Shown piece after piece: positions 17,859 through 51,122 of a DNA stretch of 64,000 bases. The position numbers and the translations under genes are program-made. Each line of letters starts with the position of its first letter. Position 1 is the stretch's first letter. The DNA comes from an uncultured Planctomycetales bacterium (GTDB taxonomy: Bacteria > Omnitrophota > Gorgyraeia > Gygaellales > Profunditerraquicolaceae): the NCBI GenBank assembly GCA_964467905.1, contig CAYXSY010000007.1:116-64115 (forward strand), written 5' to 3'. Under the pieces are notes generated by a model. It was not told the origin of the DNA and ran no database searches. It was given only the letters and a program-made list of their open reading frames with translations.

Positions 17859-18344
17859 ATGGATCAGATATTGGAAATATTGGAGAAAGACGCGCGCAGG
17901 ACTCCCGAGGAAATATCCAAGATGATTAGAAAAAAGCCACAGGTTATCAGGGGCATGATAAAGAAGTATGAAAAAGATGGGGTTATTTTAAGATATAAGA
18001 CGGTATTGAATAAAGATTTAGTCAGGGAAAATGATTCAGGGGTAAGGGCACTTATCGAGGTTAATATTACCCCGCAGAAGGATTTAGGTTTTGACCGTAT
18101 AGCCGAAAGGATTTATTCATTTCCGGAAGTTTCCAGTTGCTATCTTATTTCCGGTACATATGATTTGCTCCTTATTGTGGAAGGCAAGGACCTGCATACC
18201 GTTGCCAGATTTGTCGCAGAAAAGTTAGCTCCGCTTGAGAATGTGCGCGGAACCGCCACCCATTTTTTGCTTAAGAAATACAAAGAAGACGGCGTAATTC
18301 TAAAACATAAAGAAGAAAACAAGAGGATTGCAATATCATATTAA
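17859..18344 (+). CDS. Lrp/AsnC-family transcriptional regulator
   Basis: N-terminal HTH (ILEILEKDARRTPEEISKMI) plus a C-terminal RAM/AsnC ligand domain. Adjacent to an aminotransferase. Confidence 0.75.
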   Translation: MDQILEILEKDARRTPEEISKMIRKKPQVIRGMIKKYEKDGVILRYKTVLNKDLVRENDSGVRALIEVNITPQKDLGFDRIAERIYSFPEVSSCYLISGTYDLLLIVEGKDLHTVARFVAEKLAPLENVRGTATHFLLKKYKEDGVILKHKEENKRIAISY

Positions 18345-18460
18345 GTCTTAAATCTTAAGACCATAAACTCTAAGCTCTAAGCTTTTATTTTGTGTTTTGG
18401 ATTCTTGCTTGCCGGCAGGCAGGTGTTTAGGATTTAGTGTTTAAAATTTAAAGTTCTGCC

Positions 18461-19615
18461 ATGAAAACTATTATTGCTAAAAAAGTACAGGATATGCAAC
18501 CATCCGGCATCAGGGCATTTTTTGACCTGGTGCTTGGGATGAAGGATGTAATCTCTCTGGGCGTAGGCGAGCCGGATTTTGTGACCCCCTGGGCGGTACG
18601 CGAGGCAGGTATATCATCTTTAGAAGAAGGGTTCACAAGCTATACTTCTAACAAAGGGCTCTATAAGTTAAGGTTAGGTATCAGTCGTTCTTTAAGGAAT
18701 CGCTATGATATTGAATATTGCCCCGATGAAGAGATTCTAATAACGGTAGGGGTAAGTGAGGCGGTAGATTTGGCTTTGCGTTCCATTATCAACCCTAAAG
18801 ACAAGGTGCTCGTGCCGACTCCCAGCTATGTATCTTATGGCCCAATGACGGAGCTTACCGGGGGAGAGGCAGTTTATATTGATACAAGAAGCACGCATTT
18901 TAAGCTGACCCCGAAATTGCTTAATAAGTATGTGCATCTTAGGCCTAAGGCAATTATATTTAATTATCCGGTCAATCCTACTGGTGTTTCTTATACAAGA
19001 GCCGAGCTTAAGGAAATAAATAAAGTTTTACTTAAGCACAAAATATTTTGTATTACCGATGAGGTATATGCAGACTTGACCTATGATTTTGAACATACTC
19101 CTTTTGTTACTTTGCCGGGAGCAAAAGATAACACCTTATATTTAAACGGTTTTTCTAAATCTTATGCTATGACAGGATGGCGCGTAGGCTATGCCTGCGG
19201 CCCCAAAGAGATAATTGCGGCTATGACTAAGATACATCAGTATACAATAATGTGTGTTTCCATAACTTCGCAGATGGCAGCATCTGAAGCAATACATATA
19301 GGCAAAAAGTCGGTTGAGGAGATGAAGCGGGAGTATAAACGCAGACGTGAATTTATTGTAGATGGGCTTTGTCGCATAGGATTATCTTGTAAAAAACCGC
19401 AAGGCGCGTTTTACGCTTTCCCCTCGATAAAGAGCACCGGGCTATCCTCTCTGGAATTCGCTAAAAGACTTTTAAACAAAGAAAAAGTTGCGCTTGTCCC
19501 GGGGACTGCTTTTGGCCAGAATTATGATGATTACGTGCGTATCTCTTATGCTTCGAGTTTCGAGAATCTTAAAGAAGCTTTATTGCGCATAGAGAGGTTT
19601 ATAAAAAGTACCTGA
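18461..19615 (+). CDS. class I/II PLP-dependent (aspartate-type) aminotransferase
   Basis: NPTG and the SKSYAMTGWRVGY Lys-PLP motif, with fold type I length. Confidence 0.85.
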   Translation: MKTIIAKKVQDMQPSGIRAFFDLVLGMKDVISLGVGEPDFVTPWAVREAGISSLEEGFTSYTSNKGLYKLRLGISRSLRNRYDIEYCPDEEILITVGVSEAVDLALRSIINPKDKVLVPTPSYVSYGPMTELTGGEAVYIDTRSTHFKLTPKLLNKYVHLRPKAIIFNYPVNPTGVSYTRAELKEINKVLLKHKIFCITDEVYADLTYDFEHTPFVTLPGAKDNTLYLNGFSKSYAMTGWRVGYACGPKEIIAAMTKIHQYTIMCVSITSQMAASEAIHIGKKSVEEMKREYKRRREFIVDGLCRIGLSCKKPQGAFYAFPSIKSTGLSSLEFAKRLLNKEKVALVPGTAFGQNYDDYVRISYASSFENLKEALLRIERFIKST

Positions 19616-19649
19616 TAGGAGCCGGCGGGACTGTTTCCTGGTATTTATT

Positions 19650-20378
19650 ATGTCTAAAGATAAAAAAAATTCAGATTACAAAGTTTATATGAAGCAAATC
19701 GAAGCGCTTGCAAAGGTCGCAAGCCTCATTACTTCCGGTATGTATGTAGAAGAACTTTTGCGTTTGATTGTCAATGTTACGGCAGAAGTTATGAATTCTA
19801 AGATTTCGTCTTTGATGCTTTTAGATCCTGATAAAAAGGAATTGGTAATCAGGGCTACGCAATCGATATCAGAGGCTTATAATAAAAAGCCTAATATAAA
19901 AGTCGGCGATGGTATCGCCGGCATAGTGGCGAAAGAAAAGAAGCCGCTGTGTGTTTTAGACGTTAGAAAAGATCCGCGCTATATGAACAGGGATATAGCC
20001 ATAAAGGAAGGGTTGTATTCTTTAGCGAGCGTGCCTATGATAGTAAAGGGAAGACTCAAAGGGGTTATTAATTGTTATACTTCTAAGAAGCATGAGTTTA
20101 CCAAGGGTGAATTAGCTATACTTACTGCTTTGGCAAGTCAGGCAGCAGTGGCTATTGAGAATGCCGAGTTGGATGTGAGGGCGCGTACAGCCGAAGAGGC
20201 CCTTACCAGCCGTAAGATAATTGAGCGCGCAAAGGAAATTATAGCCCAGGAAACAAACATCCTTCCTTCTGAGGCGTACCGCTTGATACAGAAACAGAGC
20301 ATGGACAAGCGTAAAACTATGCGTGAGATTGCCGAAGCTATTATATTAGCTAAAGATGTAACTAATAAAAGTATTTAG
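19650..20378 (+). CDS. GAF-ANTAR one-component RNA-binding antiterminator (paralog 1)
   Basis: N-terminal GAF domain (LRLIVNVTAEVMNS...GVINCYT...AAVAIENAEL). C-terminal ANTAR three-helix region (SRKIIERAKEIIAQETNILPSEAYRLIQKQSMDKRKTMREIAEAIILA). No receiver domain. Confidence 0.85.
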   Translation: MSKDKKNSDYKVYMKQIEALAKVASLITSGMYVEELLRLIVNVTAEVMNSKISSLMLLDPDKKELVIRATQSISEAYNKKPNIKVGDGIAGIVAKEKKPLCVLDVRKDPRYMNRDIAIKEGLYSLASVPMIVKGRLKGVINCYTSKKHEFTKGELAILTALASQAAVAIENAELDVRARTAEEALTSRKIIERAKEIIAQETNILPSEAYRLIQKQSMDKRKTMREIAEAIILAKDVTNKSI

Positions 20379-22790: not shown

Positions 22791-22919
22791 TACGGTATAG
22801 GGCGGCAGCGTTGGCCGCCAGAACAATGTTAGTTATTCTGTTTTGCTCCTTAGAGCTTGATAGGGGTTAGAGCTACGTAGCAATTGCTTCGAAGCTCTAT
22901 CGTAAGATAGCAGGGCTAA

Positions 22920-24281
<1,362 letters not shown>

Positions 24282-24299
24282 ATTTAGATAACAACATAC

Positions 24300-24554
24300 T
24301 TGACAAGGCTCTAATAGTATGTTATTCTTTTCTTAACAATTTAAAAGAGCACAAGGTTGTGCTTAAGATAAAGGACAAAGGCGTTATATAACAATATAAC
24401 GCCTTTTTCTTTTTTATCCTATTCTATGTGAGAATAATTTTATAAAAGTAAGCCCTTCATGCCCGGTCACTTAGAGGGAGAACGGGGTTTTACTTTTTAT
24501 GTAAACAATGGCGTTTTATGCCGTAATCCGGCATAGAACGCCTTTTTATTTTTT
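24300..24554 (+). promoter_or_regulatory. promoter plus two tandem hexaloop-hairpin/terminator attenuators upstream of GAF-ANTAR paralog 2
   Basis: TTGACA (24300-24305), 17-nt spacer, TGtTATTCT (24320-24328). P1 AGCAC-AAGGTT-GTGCT at 24348-24363. P2 GAC-AAAGGC-GTT at 24374-24385, overlapping terminator 24377-24416 (GGCGTTATAT/ATATAACGCC + T-run). Second unit: AAAC-AATGGC-GTTT at 24503-24516, overlapping terminator 24510-24554 (14-bp stem + TTTTTATTTTTT). Confidence 0.7.
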
Positions 24555-24558
24555 AGCC

Positions 24559-25266
24559 ATGCAAAATTCATTTAATGAACAAATAAAGGCCCTTTCTAAA
24601 ATCAGTAAGGCGATTACTTCAGATTTCTATCTGGAGGATATATTGCGTCTGATTGTTACAGTTACGGCAGAAGTTTTAGATTCTAATATTTGTTCTTTGA
24701 TGCTTATTGATGAGAAAACTGGTGAATTAATTGTCCGGGCTACTCAGAGCGTAAGCGAAGAATACAATAAGAAGATGCCTCTTAAGGTTGGTGAAGGCAT
24801 TGCCGGCAAGGCGGTTGAACATAATAAGGCAATAGCAGTAAAGGATGTTACTAAAGAAAAAGAATATAAACATAAAGATGTCGCCAGAAAAGAAGGGCTC
24901 GTATCTTTGTTATGTGTCCCCATGTCGGTAAAGGGTAAAACAATCGGAGTAATTAATTGTTATACCGCCAAAGCACATAATTTCAGCGATACAGAGATAG
25001 AGATATTGACTACTATTGCCAATCAGGCGGCAGTAGCTATTGAGAATACCGAGCTTATGGTTAAAAGCAGGGTTATCCAGGAAGAACTGGAGACTCGCAA
25101 GAGGATTGAGCGCGCCAAAGGTGTTTTAATGCGTGATGAAAAACTCACTGAGGAACAGGCGTATTTAAAGATCCGTAAATATAGTATGGATAATCGTAAA
25201 AGCATGCGTGAAGTGGCGGAAGCGATTATCTTGGCAGCAGATATGAAGCAATTAATCAGGAGCTAA
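24559..25266 (+). CDS. GAF-ANTAR one-component RNA-binding antiterminator (paralog 2)
   Basis: Clear paralog of 19650-20378, with shared runs LRLIV.VTAEV, RATQS, GVINCYT, AAVAIEN and MRE.AEAIILA. The track start at 24508 lies inside the upstream terminator, so Met at 24559 (MQNSFNEQ...) is taken as the start. Confidence 0.85.
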   Translation: MQNSFNEQIKALSKISKAITSDFYLEDILRLIVTVTAEVLDSNICSLMLIDEKTGELIVRATQSVSEEYNKKMPLKVGEGIAGKAVEHNKAIAVKDVTKEKEYKHKDVARKEGLVSLLCVPMSVKGKTIGVINCYTAKAHNFSDTEIEILTTIANQAAVAIENTELMVKSRVIQEELETRKRIERAKGVLMRDEKLTEEQAYLKIRKYSMDNRKSMREVAEAIILAADMKQLIRS

Positions 25267-25368: not shown

Positions 25369-27021
25369 ATGAATCTTAGTAGGCCGAATGCGAATGATGC
25401 AACTGGTACGTTTAACCGCTCAAAAAATGTGGTTCCGGGTTCAGGTATTTGTTCCCGTTGTGTAGACGGCTGCAAGGGTAATTGTGAGATTTTTAAGGCA
25501 AGCTTCAGGGGCAGGGAAGTTATTTATCCGGGGCCTTTTGGTGATATAACCGCGGGTGCGGATAAAAATTATCCTGTCGATTATTCTCATTTTAATATCC
25601 AGGGCTATGCTTTAGGCGCTAAAGGTTTAAGTGAAGGTAGCGACGGTAACCCGGATAATACAAAATTCCCGGATGTGGATACTACGACAGAATACGGGTG
25701 GAGCTCTAAAGTTAAAATGGAAGTTCCTATATTTACCGGGGCTTTGGGTTCTACAGAGATTGCGCGTAAAAATTGGGAGCATTTTGCTGTAGGGGCTGGT
25801 ATATCAGGAATAACTTTGGTTTGCGGAGAAAATGTCTGTGGTATTGACCCCGGGCTTGAGCTTGATAGTAAAGGAAAAATTAAGAATTCTCCTGAGATGG
25901 ATCGTCGCATAGAAATATACAGGAGATTCCATAGGGGTTTTGGAGAGATCCTGGTGCAGATGAACGTAGAGGATACGCGTTTGGGAGTAGCTGAATATGT
26001 CCGTACAAAACATAAGTTAGAGACCATTGAGCTTAAATGGGGGCAAGGGGCTAAATGTATCGGAGGCGAAATAAAAGTCCGTAGCCTCGAACGGGCGCTG
26101 GAATTAAAGAAGCGGGGTTATATTGTTACTCCGGACCCGGGCTCAGAGGTTGTGCAGAAGGCGTTTAAAGATGGAGCGATTAAGGAATTTGAAAGGCATT
26201 CGCGCTTAGGTTTTGTCTCTGAAGAGGCATTCTTGGCGGAAATCAAACGCCTTAGAGATTTAGGTTTTAAGAGAATAACGCTTAAGACGGGGGCTTATTC
26301 TATGCGTGAATTGGCCATGGCTATCAAGTATTCTAGCCTTGCCGGGATTGATCTTCTGACTATTGACGGGGCGCCGGGAGGAACGGGTATGAGTCCGTGG
26401 CGGATGATGCAAGAGTGGGGCATCCCTACTTTTTATCTTGAAGCTTTGGCTTACGAGTTTTGTGATAAATTATCTAAGAAAGGCTTACGTGTGCCTGATA
26501 TCGCGATAGCCGGAGGGTTCTCAAGCGAAGACCATGTGTTTAAAGTAATTGCCATGGGCTCTCCTTATGTAAAGGCAGTTTGCATGGGCCGGGCGTTGAT
26601 GATTCCGGGTATGGTAGGCAAAAATATAGGACTTTGGATTAAGGAAGGCGATGTCCCCGTTACAATTTCTTCATATGGGCACACGGAAAAAGAGATATTT
26701 GTCTGTTATGAAGAGCTTATCGAGAAATATGGTAACGAGATGAAGGATATCCCCCTTGGTGCCATAGGTATATATTCTTTTGTCCAAAAAATAAAGGTTG
26801 GGTTGCAGCAACTTATGGCTGGCAGCAGGAATTTCCGGATAAGCACTATCTCCCGCAATGACCTCATGAGTTTGACCGAAGATGCGGCTAAGGTATCAGG
26901 AATTCCTTATGTGATGGATGCTTATCGCAGCGAAGCGGAGTCGATACTAAACGGGGAATCCGATGTAAGACCAGAAAGAGGTTTTGATCGGCAGCGCTTT
27001 AGCGTATCCGCAAGGAGGTAA
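25369..27021 (+). CDS. FMN-binding glutamate-synthase-domain-2-like protein (GltS-related, stand-alone)
   Basis: Homologous by eye to the GltB FMN/synthase domain (IDGAPGGTGMSP versus ISGGDGGTGASP in the window's own GltB; AGGFSSEDHVFKVIAMG). Has an N-terminal CSRCVDGCKGNCE Cys cluster. Confidence 0.7.
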   Translation: MNLSRPNANDATGTFNRSKNVVPGSGICSRCVDGCKGNCEIFKASFRGREVIYPGPFGDITAGADKNYPVDYSHFNIQGYALGAKGLSEGSDGNPDNTKFPDVDTTTEYGWSSKVKMEVPIFTGALGSTEIARKNWEHFAVGAGISGITLVCGENVCGIDPGLELDSKGKIKNSPEMDRRIEIYRRFHRGFGEILVQMNVEDTRLGVAEYVRTKHKLETIELKWGQGAKCIGGEIKVRSLERALELKKRGYIVTPDPGSEVVQKAFKDGAIKEFERHSRLGFVSEEAFLAEIKRLRDLGFKRITLKTGAYSMRELAMAIKYSSLAGIDLLTIDGAPGGTGMSPWRMMQEWGIPTFYLEALAYEFCDKLSKKGLRVPDIAIAGGFSSEDHVFKVIAMGSPYVKAVCMGRALMIPGMVGKNIGLWIKEGDVPVTISSYGHTEKEIFVCYEELIEKYGNEMKDIPLGAIGIYSFVQKIKVGLQQLMAGSRNFRISTISRNDLMSLTEDAAKVSGIPYVMDAYRSEAESILNGESDVRPERGFDRQRFSVSARR

Positions 27022-27023
27022 GC

Positions 27024-27212
27024 ATGGATAACAAAGGGTTATGTATCAATTGTGCTCACGATAAAACTTGCAGCTTTGTAAGATTTCCTTTGATTTTGCA
27101 GTGTGAAGAATTTGATATCGCTTCTGTTAGCACGGCAGAGCAAAAGTTGCAAAGTTTGAAAAAGAGCGCGCAGTATAAACCAGCTACAGAGCAAGAATAT
27201 ACTGTAGAATAA
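27024..27212 (+). CDS. small Cys-rich protein coupled to the GltS-like gene
   Basis: 62 aa with CINCAHDKTCSF...LQCEEF (a 4-Cys pattern). The start lies 2 nt after the upstream stop. Function unknown. Confidence 0.45.
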   Translation: MDNKGLCINCAHDKTCSFVRFPLILQCEEFDIASVSTAEQKLQSLKKSAQYKPATEQEYTVE

Positions 27213-27292: not shown

Positions 27293-27399
27293 TTGACAAA
27301 ACCCTCTGATATGGTAAAATAACTATACATAGGAGCAGTAGCAAGACAGAGAAGTCTTTTAGTAGAGCAAATGCTACTAAAAGACTTTTTTTATTTTTT
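27293..27399 (+). promoter_or_regulatory. promoter plus AAGAC-N6-GTCTT hairpin and leader terminator of the hydrogenase operon
   Basis: TTGACA (27293-27298), 16-nt spacer, TGgTAAAAT (27312-27320). Hairpin AAGAC-AGAGAA-GTCTT at 27343-27358 overlaps the 5' arm of a 13-bp terminator (27353-27365/27374-27386) followed by TTTTTTTATTTTTT. Confidence 0.7.
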
Positions 27400-37227: not shown

Positions 37228-37359
37228 TTATATGGTATAATTTACTTGTAATAGATAAGAAAGACAAAGATGTCTTCAGGCAAATAGGCCTGAAGATTTT
37301 TTATTCTCTAGGACTAAGGCGTCCTTTTATCCGGTGGTGGGTAGAGGGACGTTTTTTTT
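37214..37359 (+). promoter_or_regulatory. promoter plus two tandem hairpin/terminator units upstream of the sigma-factor gene
   Basis: TTGACA (37214-37219), 16-nt spacer, TGgTATAAT (37233-37241). AAGAC-AAAGAT-GTCTT at 37261-37276 overlaps terminator TCTTCAGGC/GCCTGAAGA + TTTTTT (37273-37302). GGAC-TAAGGC-GTCC at 37311-37324 overlaps a second stem (37320-37328/37343-37351) followed by T8. Confidence 0.65.
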
Positions 37360-37375
37360 GTTTTAAAGGAGAGCC

Positions 37376-37900
37376 ATGAGTGATTTTGAGATTTTATTAA
37401 AAAGAATATCGCCGGTTTTAAAAAGAATAACCTTTAAATTAGGCGGATATCATACTTTTCTTAACGAAGAAGATTTATATCAGGAAGCCCTGGTATTTTT
37501 ATGGCAAAAATTAGGCTTGGGCGAGCTTTCTGATAAGACGGATAGTTATATACTACAGGGTTGTTATTTTCATCTTAAGAATTATATAAGAAAAAAATAC
37601 AAGAAGATTAATTTTATAAGCATAGATAATATTATAAATGCTGAAGAAGATAACACGCGCAGTGGTTTTTCATTGAAAGATGAGAAATCGCTTTATTACA
37701 GAGACGAGCTTAATGCCAGGTTTATTGCGGATTCTATACGCAATAACGGGTTAGACGATAGAGAAAAAGAGATTGTGGGCTATTATGCGCAGGGTCTTAC
37801 TACCAGGGACATAGGGAAACGATTAGGCCTTTCCCATGTACGTATAGTAAAAATAACCGCCGAAATACGGGTTAAATGCCGCAAGCATATAGATTATTGA
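37376..37900 (+). CDS. ECF-like sigma-70 family factor (regions 2 and 4 only)
   Basis: Region 2 is EDLYQEALVFLWQK. Region 4 HTH is REKEIVGYYAQGLTTRDIGKRLGLSHVRIVKI. No anti-sigma gene is evident next to it. Confidence 0.65.
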   Translation: MSDFEILLKRISPVLKRITFKLGGYHTFLNEEDLYQEALVFLWQKLGLGELSDKTDSYILQGCYFHLKNYIRKKYKKINFISIDNIINAEEDNTRSGFSLKDEKSLYYRDELNARFIADSIRNNGLDDREKEIVGYYAQGLTTRDIGKRLGLSHVRIVKITAEIRVKCRKHIDY

Positions 37901-37971
37901 TTTTGTTGTTACCAATTCATGTAAATTGTTACTTGTATAAGTGAAACACATTGATGTGTAGTAGTAAAGCC

Positions 37972-38009
37972 AAGGATGCTTAAGTTTTAAGTATCCTTTT
38001 TTTGTTTTT
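37972..38009 (+). terminator. intrinsic terminator after the sigma-factor gene
   Basis: A 12-bp stem AAGGATGCTTAA/TTAAGTATCCTT (one G-U pair), 3-nt loop, then TTTTTTTGTTTTT. Confidence 0.75.
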
Positions 38010-38012
38010 ATC

Positions 38013-38066
38013 AAGACGTTGGTGTCTTTTTGGCATTGGAGTCGCCAGGAAGGCGCCATTTTTTTT
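38013..38066 (+). promoter_or_regulatory. AAGAC-N6-GTCTT hairpin plus U-run, then a GC hairpin plus T8; alternatively a sigma54-like -24/-12 element
   Basis: AAGAC-GTTGGT-GTCTT at 38013-38028, followed by TTT. CGCC-AGGAA-GGCG at 38043-38055, flanked by TGG/CCA and followed by T8 (38059-38066). TGGCAT-N5-TCGC at 38031-38045 matches the GG/GC spacing of sigma54 promoters. Confidence 0.4.
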
Positions 38067-38092
38067 GCGCAACCAGAAAAAGGAGAGGTTTT

Positions 38093-38860
38093 ATGCGTAA
38101 GGCTATGTGCTTATTATTGTTAGTTTTTGCTCTTCACGGATTTGTTCTCGCAGGCGAAAGTCCAGAAGCCACATTGTTAGGAAAATCCGGTTTTGAGGTC
38201 AGCGGCGATGTTTCGTTTTTCACTCAATACATATGGAGAGGTTTTGTTTTAGACAGAGATGCTGTTTTTCAGCCGGGTATTTATATATCCAGTCCAAAGT
38301 CTAAGTTCGGCAGGGTAAAAGGCGGGTTTTGGTCTAATGTTCCTTTGCAGAATAAAGATGATTTGAGTTCGCAAGAGTACGATTATATATTCGATTACAC
38401 TTATGATTTTAAATATGCGAGCGTATCTTTAGGGCATACTTATTATGATTTTTCCGGCACCCATACTTATAGCAAAGAGTTTTACGTTGGCTTGAACCTG
38501 CCGGGGATCTTTCTATCCCCATCAGTGTATTATTACCGCGATTACGGAGACCCTAAACATGGCGGCGGGCTTGGTAGTTATACCGTTGTAAGCGCTTCCT
38601 ATAGCTTACCGCTAGACTTAAAAAATATACCCTGCAGCCTTGATTTATCCGGTCATGTAGGTTTTAACCATAATTTGTTCATGGATGGCGATGGCGGAGA
38701 TGTTGCTTTAAAAGTAGGTTTTACAGTGCCAATTACCAAGAATCTTAAACTGACGCCCAATGTAAATTATTCTATTCCTTTCGGCGATTTAAGGGATAAG
38801 GACCACGCTAATCAGAAAGACAGGTTCTTTGGAGGCGGAACTTTAGCGTATGTATTTTAG
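38093..38860 (+). CDS. outer-membrane beta-barrel porin (TorF/Gcw_chp-like) linked to amtB
   Basis: Signal peptide MRKAMCLLLLVFALHGFVLA. Alternating beta-strand pattern, an SGDVSFFTQYIWRGF N-terminal motif, and a C-terminal ...LAYVF. Good RBS (AAAGGAGAGG) before ATG 38093. The track TTG start at 38030 is rejected. Confidence 0.6.
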   Translation: MRKAMCLLLLVFALHGFVLAGESPEATLLGKSGFEVSGDVSFFTQYIWRGFVLDRDAVFQPGIYISSPKSKFGRVKGGFWSNVPLQNKDDLSSQEYDYIFDYTYDFKYASVSLGHTYYDFSGTHTYSKEFYVGLNLPGIFLSPSVYYYRDYGDPKHGGGLGSYTVVSASYSLPLDLKNIPCSLDLSGHVGFNHNLFMDGDGGDVALKVGFTVPITKNLKLTPNVNYSIPFGDLRDKDHANQKDRFFGGGTLAYVF

Positions 38861-49357: not shown

Positions 49358-49388
49358 AAAGTGAGCATCTGTGGCTTTGCGTTTGGTA

Positions 49389-49497
49389 TTGACTTATAAT
49401 TATGTCGTGGTATAATTTAAGTGTAATTCAGGGTAGAATTGCTATAAAACAATGGCGTTTAGAGATAGGAAAATTGTCTCTAAGCGCCATTTTTATT
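49389..49497 (+). promoter_or_regulatory. promoter plus canonical dual-hexaloop (ANTAR-type) attenuator of the pyrG-carAB-purF operon
   Basis: TTGACT (49389-49394), 16-nt spacer, TGgTATAAT (49408-49416). P1 GTAATTC-AGGGTA-GAATTGC at 49423-49442. 4-nt linker. P2 AAAC-AATGGC-GTTT at 49447-49460, overlapping a 14-bp terminator stem (49452-49465/49477-49490) followed by TTTTATT. Confidence 0.75.
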
Positions 49498-49514
49498 GAG
49501 TAAAAGGAAAGATT

Positions 49515-51122
49515 ATGCCTAAATATATATTTGTTACCGGCGGGGTGATATCAAGCTTAGGTAAGGGAATAGCTTGCGCGTCTATCGGCAAGATACTTGA
49601 ATCCCGGGGGATAAAGGTTACCCTGATGAAGCTTGACCCTTATATAAATGTTGACCCCGGGACTATGAATCCTTATCAGCATGGCGAGGTATATGTTACT
49701 GAAGATGGAGCCGAAACGGACCTTGATTTAGGTCATTATGAGCGTTTTACTAATGCCGAAATGACCAAGTTTAACAATGCCACAAGCGGCAGTGTCTATA
49801 ATTCAGTTATTTTAAGAGAGAGGCGCGGCGATTATCTGGGGAAAACTATACAAGTTATCCCGCATATCACTAACGAAATAAAAGACAGGATTAGGAGGGT
49901 CGCCGATACATCTGGGGCAGAGGTAATATTGGTTGAGATCGGCGGCACTGTCGGGGATATAGAAAGTCTCCCTTTCTTAGAGGCAGTCAGGCAATTTAAG
50001 CTCGACATTGGCGAAGGCAATGTTTTATACGTCCATTTGACCCTCGTTCCATATATAAAATGCGCCGAAGAAATAAAAACCAAACCCACCCAGCATAGCG
50101 TTGGCACACTAAGAGAGATTGGTATACAGCCAGATATACTTATTTGCCGTACAGAGAAGCCGCTTTCAGGTGAAGTTAAAGAAAAGATTTCTTTGTTTTG
50201 CAATGTAGCTAAGGAAAGCGTGATTGAGGCCATTGATGTCGATACTATATATCGCCTGCCACTGGTTTTTAAGTCGCAGGTTTTAGATGAAATAATATTG
50301 AGTCATTTTAAACTGATACGTAAGTCTTCGGATTTAAAGGATTGGGAAAAAATGGTAGTAGATAAGACCATAAACCCCAAGAAAGAGGTTAGAATTGCCT
50401 TAGTCGGCAAATATATAGCGCTTCAGGATGCGTATAAATCCATATATGAATCTTTAGTCCATGCAGGGATACACAATGACGCCAAGGTTTATATTAAGAA
50501 AGTAGATTCTGAAGAGATAGAAGAAAAAGGCGTGGAGTGTATGTTGGCTGATGTCTGCGGCGTGTTAGTCCCGGGAGGATTCGGCTCAAGAGGCATTGAG
50601 GGAAAAATCAAAGCTATCCAATACGCACGTAAGAATAAGATTCCGTTTTTCGGACTATGCCTTGGTATGCAGTGCGCAGTTATTGAATTTGCGCGGCATG
50701 TTTGTGCCTTGGGGGGAGCTAATTCTACAGAGTTTAACATTAAAACCAAACATCCGGTTATAAGCTTGCTTGCTCAACAGCGTAATATTAAAGATCTCGG
50801 CGGGACAATGCGCCTGGGATCCTATCCGTGTAAAATCAAGAAAAGAACCCTGGCTTATTCGGTGTATTCTAAAGACCTTATCCATGAGAGGCACAGGCAT
50901 CGCTATGAATTCAATAACAAATACCGCAGCGTCTTAGAGAAAAAAGGCATGATTTTCTCCGGGATATATGCTAAAAAGGATTTGGTGGAGATAGTTGAAT
51001 TGAAGGACCATCCGTTTTTCATCGCTGTTCAGTTCCATCCAGAATTCAAGTCTAAACCTGATAAAGCCCATCCTTTATTCAGGGATTTTATTAAGGCGGC
51101 AGTCGATAAAGCAGAAAAATAA
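49515..51122 (+). CDS. pyrG: CTP synthase
   Basis: [18 protein letters not shown], and a GATase domain with GLCLGMQ and HRHRYE. Confidence 0.95.

Follow-up and report, generated by a model that had tools for sequence, protein, structure and literature searches.

ANTAR leaders and the Omnitrophota locus

The closest described counterparts of the element treated here are the leaders of the Enterococcus faecalis eut genes (eutP, eutG, eutS, and eutA), which are read by the ANTAR protein EutV and carry two hairpins, P1 and P2, whose hexaloops have A at position 1 and G at position 4 (A1/G4), P2 being shared with a terminator (PMC3369931, PMC8934654). In this family, an ANTAR dimer binds the A1/G4 hexaloops, probably moving from P1 to P2 as these are transcribed, and stabilizes P2 against the terminator (PMC3369931, PMC8934654); in the EutV–RNA structure, the loop G4 stacks on a tyrosine (PMC8934654). 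Here, we describe a 260-base leader (24300-24558) in a 64-kilobase (kb) stretch of plus-strand DNA from a Candidatus Omnitrophota genome, the whole of which we call the window. The leader precedes a nitrogen-regulator gene, the second of two genes for GAF-ANTAR proteins in the window (paralog 2), and we estimate a probability of roughly three in four that it serves the operon of paralog 2 and a GltS-like gene as a serial ANTAR-type attenuator, most likely of three units.

The NasR/nasF system of Klebsiella oxytoca and the AmiR/ami system of Pseudomonas aeruginosa likewise combine a ligand-controlled ANTAR antiterminator with a leader hairpin and terminator at nitrogen-assimilation genes, but these are single attenuators with a NIT or AmiC sensor instead of the GAF domain found here, and their regulator genes are not known to lie behind a target of their own. 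ANTAR nitrogen regulons have also been predicted for Desulfotomaculum acetoxidans and D. reducens (Ramesh et al. 2012, Fig. 9, Table S2; PMC3369931), with 13 predicted units in six transcription units of D. acetoxidans and, as in the window, units ahead of amtB/PII, glutamate synthase, glutamine synthetase, and related genes. Table S2 of that study contains pairs of matches that share their downstream genes, a regulator gene among these, and lie 130-250 nucleotides (nt) from each other; serial units are therefore already in the published data, though the arrangement was not analyzed there. The Desulfotomaculum matches are computational only and belong to another phylum, whereas the units here, most likely three, stand ahead of the ANTAR gene itself and are kept across dozens of genomes. 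According to Ramesh et al., GAF-ANTAR proteins did not yet have a characterized member (PMC3369931), and the passages of a 2025 review that match a term search describe none either. Our literature search returned nothing on serial ANTAR attenuators or on regulation in Omnitrophota. Several termination checkpoints in a single leader are familiar from tandem riboswitches and tandem T-box leaders, where they give a sharper or more stringent response; those leaders are read by metabolites or tRNAs directly and not by a protein.

Compared with the eut leaders, the Omnitrophota leader has the same A1/G4 hexaloop hairpins and the same sharing of P2 with the terminator. A dimeric ANTAR reader like EutV is presumed, and the loop-stacking tyrosine column is kept in paralog 2. 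The leader differs in having a GAF sensor where EutV has a phospho-receiver domain, P1 loops that are often 7 nt long, linkers of 6 to about 20 nt, a predicted three units in one leader rather than one per gene boundary, and an uncultivated Omnitrophota host. Unit 1 shows every sequence-level feature of a published ANTAR substrate (the dual-hexaloop motif of Ramesh et al. 2012), the middle unit shows them with deviations (U1 in the P2′ loop and a P1′ loop of 5 or 7 nt), and the loops AAGGUU, AAAGGC, and AAUGGC all fit the A1/G4 rule. A potential reader is encoded nearby, as the window holds two GAF-ANTAR genes. We regard the leader as unusually well conserved but in essence an ordinary case of an established regulatory class, and it opens no new mechanism. 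Its interest would lie in extending ANTAR antitermination with a GAF sensor to a candidate phylum without genetics, in supplying a well-conserved RNA target set for testing what GAF-ANTAR proteins sense, and in offering a natural case of multiplied termination checkpoints and positive feedback ahead of a regulator's own gene. The serial arrangement could also explain a tight off-state of nitrogen assimilation genes in these small-genome organisms.

Architecture and conservation of the leader

A preliminary description of the locus had proposed a single promoter followed by two complete hairpin/terminator units in series, and a check of the sequence finds the promoter and every hairpin and terminator that it named (table 1). 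The ANTAR-type character of units in series behind one promoter is likewise borne out, both by pair counts over 34 aligned leaders and by a covariance model (R1) built from unit 1 of 28 other genomes only, which recovers unit 1 in the window. The count of two complete units fared less well: unit 1 is complete, but the second named unit has only its P2, and most likely there are three units.

Table 1. Leader elements, neighboring genes, and matches of covariance model R1 in the window
Feature	Coordinates	Strand	Details
GAF-ANTAR paralog 1	19650-20378	+	Pfam ANTAR
Sigma-70-type promoter	24300..24328	+	-35 TTGACA 24300-05, 17-nt spacer, TG 24320-21, -10 TATTCT 24323-28
Unit 1 P1 hairpin	24348..24363	+	AGCAC-AAGGUU-GUGCU; loop A1, G4
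Unit 1 P2 mini-hairpin	24374..24385	+	GAC-AAAGGC-GUU; loop and 3′ arm double as T1 5′ arm
Terminator T1	24377..24415	+	13-base-pair (bp) stem 24377-24406, loop AACA, then UUUUUCUUUUUU
Middle unit P1′ hairpin	24421..24435	+	AUUCU-AUGUG-AGAAU; as 7-nt loop UAUGUGA (G4, U5)
Middle unit P2′ mini-hairpin	24446..24457	+	AAG-UAAGCC-CUU; G4, U instead of A at position 1
T2-like hairpin	24447..24500	+	hairpin 24447-24494, -13.9 kcal/mol, then UUUUAUGU; weak or degenerate middle terminator
Candidate unit 3 P1″ (tentative)	24478..24491	+	GAGA-ACGGGG-UUUU; A1, G4; 2 A-U and 2 G-U pairs
Unit 3 P2″ mini-hairpin	24503..24516	+	AAAC-AAUGGC-GUUU; holds false ATG 24508-10
Terminator T3	24510..24554	+	14-bp stem 24510-24542 (8 GC pairs), loop UAAUC, then UUUUUAUUUUUU
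GAF-ANTAR regulator paralog 2 (235 amino acids, aa)	24559..25266	+	Pfam GAF_2 2.5e-24, ANTAR 8.9e-21
GltS-like gene (550 aa)	25369..27021	+	partial PF01645 match
R1 match, unit 1	24347-87	+	42 bits, E = 1.5e-8
R1 match, glnN leader	40530-77	+	28.4 bits, E = 3e-5
R1 match, unit 3	24478-24517	+	16.2 bits, E = 0.029; P1 part unpaired by model
R1 match, gltB leader	42867-920	+	13.6 bits
R1 match, pyrG leader	49424-61	+	13.3 bits
R1 match, sigma-factor leader	37233-76	+	12.0 bits

The promoter scores 10 of 12 and has an extended -10 TG; TTGACA, the TG, and the T/A/T positions of the -10 box show no variation among 12 aligned leaders, and transcription would start near 24335. Unit 1, with a 10-nt linker between P1 and P2 and a run directly after the T1 stem that reads TTTTTCTTTTTT, folds at -29.4 kcal/mol (z = -8.3). 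At the far end, T3 has a ΔG of -23 kcal/mol, its run TTTTTATTTTTT ends at 24554, and only AGCC separates the run from the ATG at 24559. In all three units the mini-hairpin overlaps the terminator behind it (P2 24374-85 with T1 24377-24406, P2′ 24446-57 with T2 24447-94, and P2″ 24503-16 with T3 24510-42), and because the loop and 3′ arm of the mini-hairpin also form the 5′ terminator arm, only one of the two structures can exist at a time. In silico folding, proposed as a check in the preliminary description, gives -77.2 kcal/mol for the whole leader (24325-24560) against -44.2 ± 3.9 for shuffles (z = -8.5). The 14-nt identity it had noticed between P2″ and the P2 of the pyrG leader is exact, AAACAATGGCGTTT occurring exactly twice in the 64-kb window, at 24503 and at 49447 (pyrG leader, P2 49447-60).

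Orthologous loci carry the same leader, in all more than 40 Omnitrophota genomes and metagenome contigs. The best 80 genomic relatives of paralog 2 (67-86% identity) are nearly all from metagenome-assembled genomes of Candidatus Omnitrophota, with a few from Aerophobetes, Auribacterota, and Margulisbacteria; all 80 are orthologs of paralog 2 and none of paralog 1, and an exact look-up of the paralog 2 protein sequence returned no record. The leader precedes the orthologous gene in 11 genome loci and in 22 further distinct metagenome contigs, the latter being the distinct ones among 27 contigs from a two-anchor pattern scan. The 34-leader alignment shows conservation of the promoter hexamers, of every hairpin loop, and of the two strong terminators; across all six loop positions, G4 is invariant in 33 relatives and A1 is mostly kept. 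In the same alignment, 97.2% of cells are paired for the antiterminated structure (P1, P2, P1′, P2′, the apex of T2, and P2″) and 95.0% for the terminated structure (P1, T1, P1′, T2, and T3), compared with 36-58% in a control with partners slid by 1-3 columns. Two-sided changes occur at 6 pairs of the antiterminated and 15 pairs of the terminated structure. By element, the unit 1 P1 helix is 100% paired with one compensatory pair, T1 is 97% and T3 99% paired, the latter with three compensatory pairs, and P2 and P2″ show no variation. Across the wider clade the P1 stem covaries (GCAC/GUGC, AUAC/GUAU, GUAC/GUAC, and ACAC/GUGU). RNAalifold run on the same alignment independently gives P1, T1, the T2 apex hairpin, and T3.

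For L001-type leaders, RNAalifold also pairs AAAAGGA before the unit 1 P2 with UUUCUUUU at the 3′ end of T2 (alignment columns 36-42 with 177-183), which leaves one U-rich strand with two possible AAAAGGA partners, a long-range alternative that may or may not be of consequence.

Terminator-like hairpins were counted in orthologous leaders with an RNAfold-based finder, a permissive tool with many false positives in coding regions. It reports three such hairpins in at least 16 leaders, two in about 7, and one in about 20; several more close relatives fall just below the three-hairpin thresholds, and the remaining leaders have none, the gene there lying close behind another gene. By these counts, ANTAR-type attenuators ahead of the regulator gene are widespread across the loci, with lineages differing in their number of units.

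Protein binding to the leader hairpins is predicted from their form. Some other reader (another RNA-binding protein, or a ribosome- or NusA-dependent process), with the ANTAR co-occurrence a coincidence, would suit the frequent 7-nt P1-type loops, the canonical loop having 6 nt. We nevertheless consider it very improbable, as unit 1 shows all of the defining features (A1, G4, and the P2/terminator overlap) and such units stand ahead of the ANTAR gene itself in dozens of genomes as well as ahead of nitrogen genes typical of predicted ANTAR regulons.

The leader lies in the intergenic region 24282-24558, with the glutamate dehydrogenase gene gdh (22944-24281) on its left and the GAF-ANTAR gene on its right. 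Only 19 nt separate the end of gdh from the regulator's -35 box, and they hold no gdh terminator, so gdh transcripts should enter T1. The same layout of gdh followed by the leader is found in L002, L007, L008, L013, L015, and L019. Because gdh lacks a terminator of its own and the layout recurs, T1 probably ends gdh transcripts too and would thus have a dual role. A stronger version, in which T1 is mainly the gdh terminator, the P1/P2 likeness is incidental, and only T3 regulates the ANTAR gene, could appeal to the lack of a terminator between the gdh stop at 24281 and the promoter at 24300, to the recurrence of this layout in six loci, and to T1 being a perfect palindrome that scores on the minus strand as well. 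We judge it improbable: T1 lies downstream of a conserved promoter, unit 1 is kept where other genes lie upstream (L001, L003, L004, and L011), P1 and P2 are conserved, P1 covaries, and the P1/P2 pair is the best match of R1. The gdh-end and regulatory roles are moreover compatible. A P1-like hairpin, GGCGGC-AGCGUUG-GCCGCC (A1, G4, U5), is present at 22801-22819 at the start of the gdh leader itself, with no terminator seen downstream of it.

The ATG at 24508, within the AATGGC hexaloop, is where the listed open reading frame (ORF) 24508..25266 begins, and the preliminary description had called it a false start. We agree: the true regulator start is, on alignment evidence, ATG 24559, because orthologs align from the Met at 24559 (residue 1) and because reading from the loop ATG continues in frame into the gene in just 5 of the 35 distinct leaders that carry it, the other 30 having a stop or a different frame. 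No Shine-Dalgarno sequence is found ahead of ATG 24559, and close relatives are alike in this; AGGAGG-type sites are present at gdh, the GltS-like gene, and amtB and at more distant regulator orthologs.

The spacer between the strong terminators

The 85-nt spacer between T1 and T3 had been described as containing CCCU/AGGG and similar pairings that could not be assigned. The pairings are present, but the spacer is not unassignable, since it matches a middle unit by position and structure; most likely, it is the middle attenuator of a leader with three units in series. Its P1′ aligns with UUUC-AGCGUCU-GAAA of relatives, and its P2′, which follows after a 10-nt linker and excludes the lower T2 stem, stands where close relatives have AAGG-AAUGUU-CCUU and distant ones GGAU-AAAGAC-GUCC. 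A complete third unit lies between the first and last terminators in L007, L009, L010, L016, L020, L024, L028, L035, L036, L049, and L057. The middle unit of distant relatives consists of UUUC-ANNGUYA-GAAA, 3-6 nt, GGAU-AAAGAC-GUCC, and a terminator (-13 to -21 kcal/mol) that ends in a U-run. That of close relatives consists of UUUC-AGCGUCU-GAAA, AAGG-AAUGUU-CCUU, and a long, imperfectly paired helix with GUUAGC-AAGGUUUA-GCUAAC as its cap and UUUCUUUU behind it. The conservation check suggested earlier for the spacer shows P1′, P2′, and the lower T2 helix to be positionally kept in the window and its relatives (90-95% paired; P1′ helix 95%); the interior of T2 is peculiar to the window.

For the middle unit, a descriptor scan with shuffles took the place of a covariance model, since in MAFFT alignments gaps fell within the P1′ stem and the position of P2′ differed between lineages. 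The descriptor specifies a P1-type hairpin, a 3-15-nt linker, and a G4 hexaloop hairpin that shares bases with a second hairpin, of -10 kcal/mol or stronger, with a U-run behind it. It matches the middle unit of the window. In dinucleotide shuffles it matches by chance about 2.8 times per 128 kb, which corresponds to about 0.002 expected in 85 nt, with the reservation that the descriptor was designed after the site had been seen. The middle unit is likely present in the window by descent, while the odds that T2 still terminates in this genome appear about even.

Several observations weigh against the serial reading, and most of those that concern the spacer also favor a two-unit version, in which only T1 and T3 function and the spacer is a decayed middle unit that neither terminates nor binds protein and at most supplies a P1 for unit 3. 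Folded by itself, the spacer does not stand out from shuffles (z = -1.1 to -1.4), its P2′ loop opens with U where the consensus has A, and the window T2 is weak, being interrupted by a large internal loop and trailed by no more than a short U run. Its interior is unlike that of all 33 close relatives, and even their T2 is AU-rich, at -8 to -14 kcal/mol, and is followed by UUUU only. Model R1, when scanned over the window, does not detect the middle unit, and the two-anchor scan for window-type spacers found all 27 contigs to be of the common type and none to be window-like. More generally, covariation is modest because the sequences are close, most pairs never varying or varying on one side only, and we found no experimental evidence for any Omnitrophota regulator. 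Unit 3 adds a further difficulty, as it has no convincing P1. The candidate at 24478-91, 11 nt ahead of P2″, is weak, and in relatives the sole candidate is the T2 apex, which lies 20-25 nt from P2″; in EutV, a linker 20 nt longer abolished antitermination (PMC8934654). An apparently canonical P1 for unit 3 in L001 (AAAU-AAGGGU-AUUU) was rejected as a general feature, being absent from the other leaders when the alignment was read by eye.

Against the two-unit version stand the retained positions of P1′, P2′, and the lower T2 helix in the window and all relatives, the intact logic of P2′/T2 exclusion in the window, and the small chance expectation for such a unit in 85 nt. A U1 loop also occurs elsewhere in the window, where UAAGGC precedes a strong terminator (37314-37351). 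We therefore regard the two-unit version as possible, though distinctly less likely than not, and retain three units as the preferred reading.

The spacer might instead be a separate element, such as a ligand-binding riboswitch, a small RNA gene, a small ORF, or a second promoter that bypasses T1. Relatives do share a strongly conserved GUUAGC-AAGGUUUA-GCUAAC hairpin, the interleaved CCCU/AGGG and CCCG/CGGG of the window could form a pseudoknot, and a weak extended -10-like TGnGAGAAT lies at 24427-35. This conserved core is replaced in the window, however, which a ligand pocket would not tolerate. Rfam gives no match at the gathering threshold anywhere in the window and only sub-threshold, chance-level matches (E <= 10) in this leader and that of L001. 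No second promoter is called in the spacer or conserved among the 12 aligned leaders, and the 25-codon ORF from 24460 has no ribosome-binding site. A separate element is thus highly unlikely. A glutamine-riboswitch or pseudoknot reading of the CCCU/AGGG and CCCG/CGGG pairings was dropped because they involve a T2 interior that only the window has, none of the 33 close relatives sharing it.

In a more elaborate form of the serial attenuator, two regulators would read a relay of three stages. The middle terminator of relatives would use its apical loop, GUUAGC-AAGGUUUA-GCUAAC (A1, G4), also as P1 of the next unit, so that rescue of one terminator would present the landing site for the next. Three classes of P2 loop (AAAGGC; AAUGUU or AAAGAC; AAUGGC) each keep their identity across distant genomes, and if these were read by two GAF-ANTAR paralogs of different specificity, the expression of paralog 2 and the GltS-like gene would form an AND gate over two nitrogen signals. 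We consider such a relay unlikely. The apex of the middle terminator is usually a P1-like loop (A1, G4) where a third unit follows (L016, L020, L024, L035, L049, and L057), and in the two-unit leaders L017, L018, and L025, it is a plain tight loop; L007, L010, L015, and L048 fit this correlation poorly, and it is only suggestive.

Regulation, regulator proteins, and related leaders

Under the serial attenuator reading, we predict that polymerase starting near 24335 meets T1, the weaker T2, and T3 in turn, each directly preceded by a mini-hairpin of 3-4 bp with a G4 hexaloop, the helper hairpins P1 and P1′ carrying like loops. An activated GAF-ANTAR dimer would bind the loops and keep the mini-hairpin closed, blocking the terminator and allowing read-through; in its absence, termination would yield short RNAs of roughly 78, 165, and 215 nt. 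Since read-through would be the product of three separate rescue events, low regulator activity should leave the operon very tightly off, and the switch to the on-state should be steep. As the leader controls an ANTAR regulator gene, the circuit would be self-reinforcing if paralog 2 reads it and a cascade if paralog 1 does. Autoregulation by paralog 2, and with it the feedback loop proposed in the preliminary description, is a candidate reading; paralog 1, which has no such leader, could be the sole actor, which would make the arrangement a cascade and not autoregulation. The signal is probably a nitrogen-status metabolite, as suggested solely by the GAF domain of paralog 2 being closest to those of PtsP (EI-Ntr) and NifA-like proteins.

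Both paralogs score well above the Pfam ANTAR cut-off of 27.3 bits (63.7 for paralog 1 and 73.9 for paralog 2), and they share 55% identity; the GAF match of paralog 2 exceeds its Pfam threshold as well. The ANTAR domain of paralog 2 is closest to those of EutV (6wsh), Rv1626 (1s8n), and NasR (4akk), to which residues 171-225 align with E = 1e-8 to 3e-7. Its EEQAY aligns with EEEAY of EutV, which keeps the loop-stacking Tyr column; identifying this residue with EutV Tyr164 presupposes that the numbering of the deposited chain is offset by 2 residues. In the region 17859-20378, no ANTAR-type attenuator is found upstream of paralog 1, which begins 35 nt after an aminotransferase gene that itself follows an Lrp/AsnC-like gene. 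In L009, L010, L023, and L103, the gene directly ahead of the paralog 2 leader is paralog 1.

The GltS-like gene is probably co-transcribed with paralog 2, the 103-nt gap between them containing no terminator that we could find, and the pair of regulator and GltS-like gene is kept in about 60 loci. The GltS-like protein is 78-87% identical in most of the paired loci and about 47-58% in roughly ten, and it has no sequence relative in the PDB and no NCBIfam match. A role as sensor for the ANTAR protein or as its partner is conceivable, on the model of AmiC-AmiR and NasS-NasT.

The window as a whole is a plus-strand supercluster of nitrogen assimilation genes, beginning with the aminotransferase, paralog 1, an NfnA/GltD-like pair, gdh, paralog 2, and the GltS-like gene, and continuing with Mrp/Nuo-like genes, a sigma factor, amtB, glnB (PII), type III glutamine synthetase, gltBD, pyrG, and carAB. 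The six best matches of R1 in the window all lie in plus-strand leaders, and R1 together with the RNAfold-based finder indicates about twelve attenuators before eight transcription units, among them glnN, gltB, pyrG, amtB, and the sigma factor, with double units ahead of the sigma-factor gene and the amtB operon.

Some of these leaders show details of their own. The leader of the pyrG gene (49358-49515) has a P1, AAUUC-AGGGUA-GAAUU, followed by the P2 identical to that of unit 3, and pyrG directly follows the regulator/GltS-like pair in several relatives (L024, L026, L037, L039, L041, L055, and L077). Bacillus pyrG is controlled by CTP-sensing reiterative-transcription attenuation, unlike the ANTAR-type leader here. 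In the leader of the sigma-70/ECF-like gene (37228-37376), terminators lie at 37273-96 and 37320-51, the second behind AGGAC-UAAGGC-GUCCU. The Mrp/Nuo-like operon has its own promoter (TTGACA 27293) and an ANTAR-type unit, AAGAC-AGAGAA-GTCTT (27343-58), overlapping a terminator at 27354-27385 that is followed by a U-run; the listed start, ATG 27371, is in the terminator loop, and the likely true start is ATG 27413, which is without a Shine-Dalgarno sequence. The leader of the gene ahead of amtB-glnB (37901-38095) has terminators at 37974-96 and 38020-58, with the listed start, TTG 38030, inside it and a likely start at ATG 38093 preceded by a GGAGAGG ribosome-binding site. For annotation, at least three ORF starts in the window (24508 ATG, 27371 ATG, and 38030 TTG) are thus likely artefacts inside attenuator structures. 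A Cys-rich ORF of 62 aa (27024-27212) follows the GltS-like gene.

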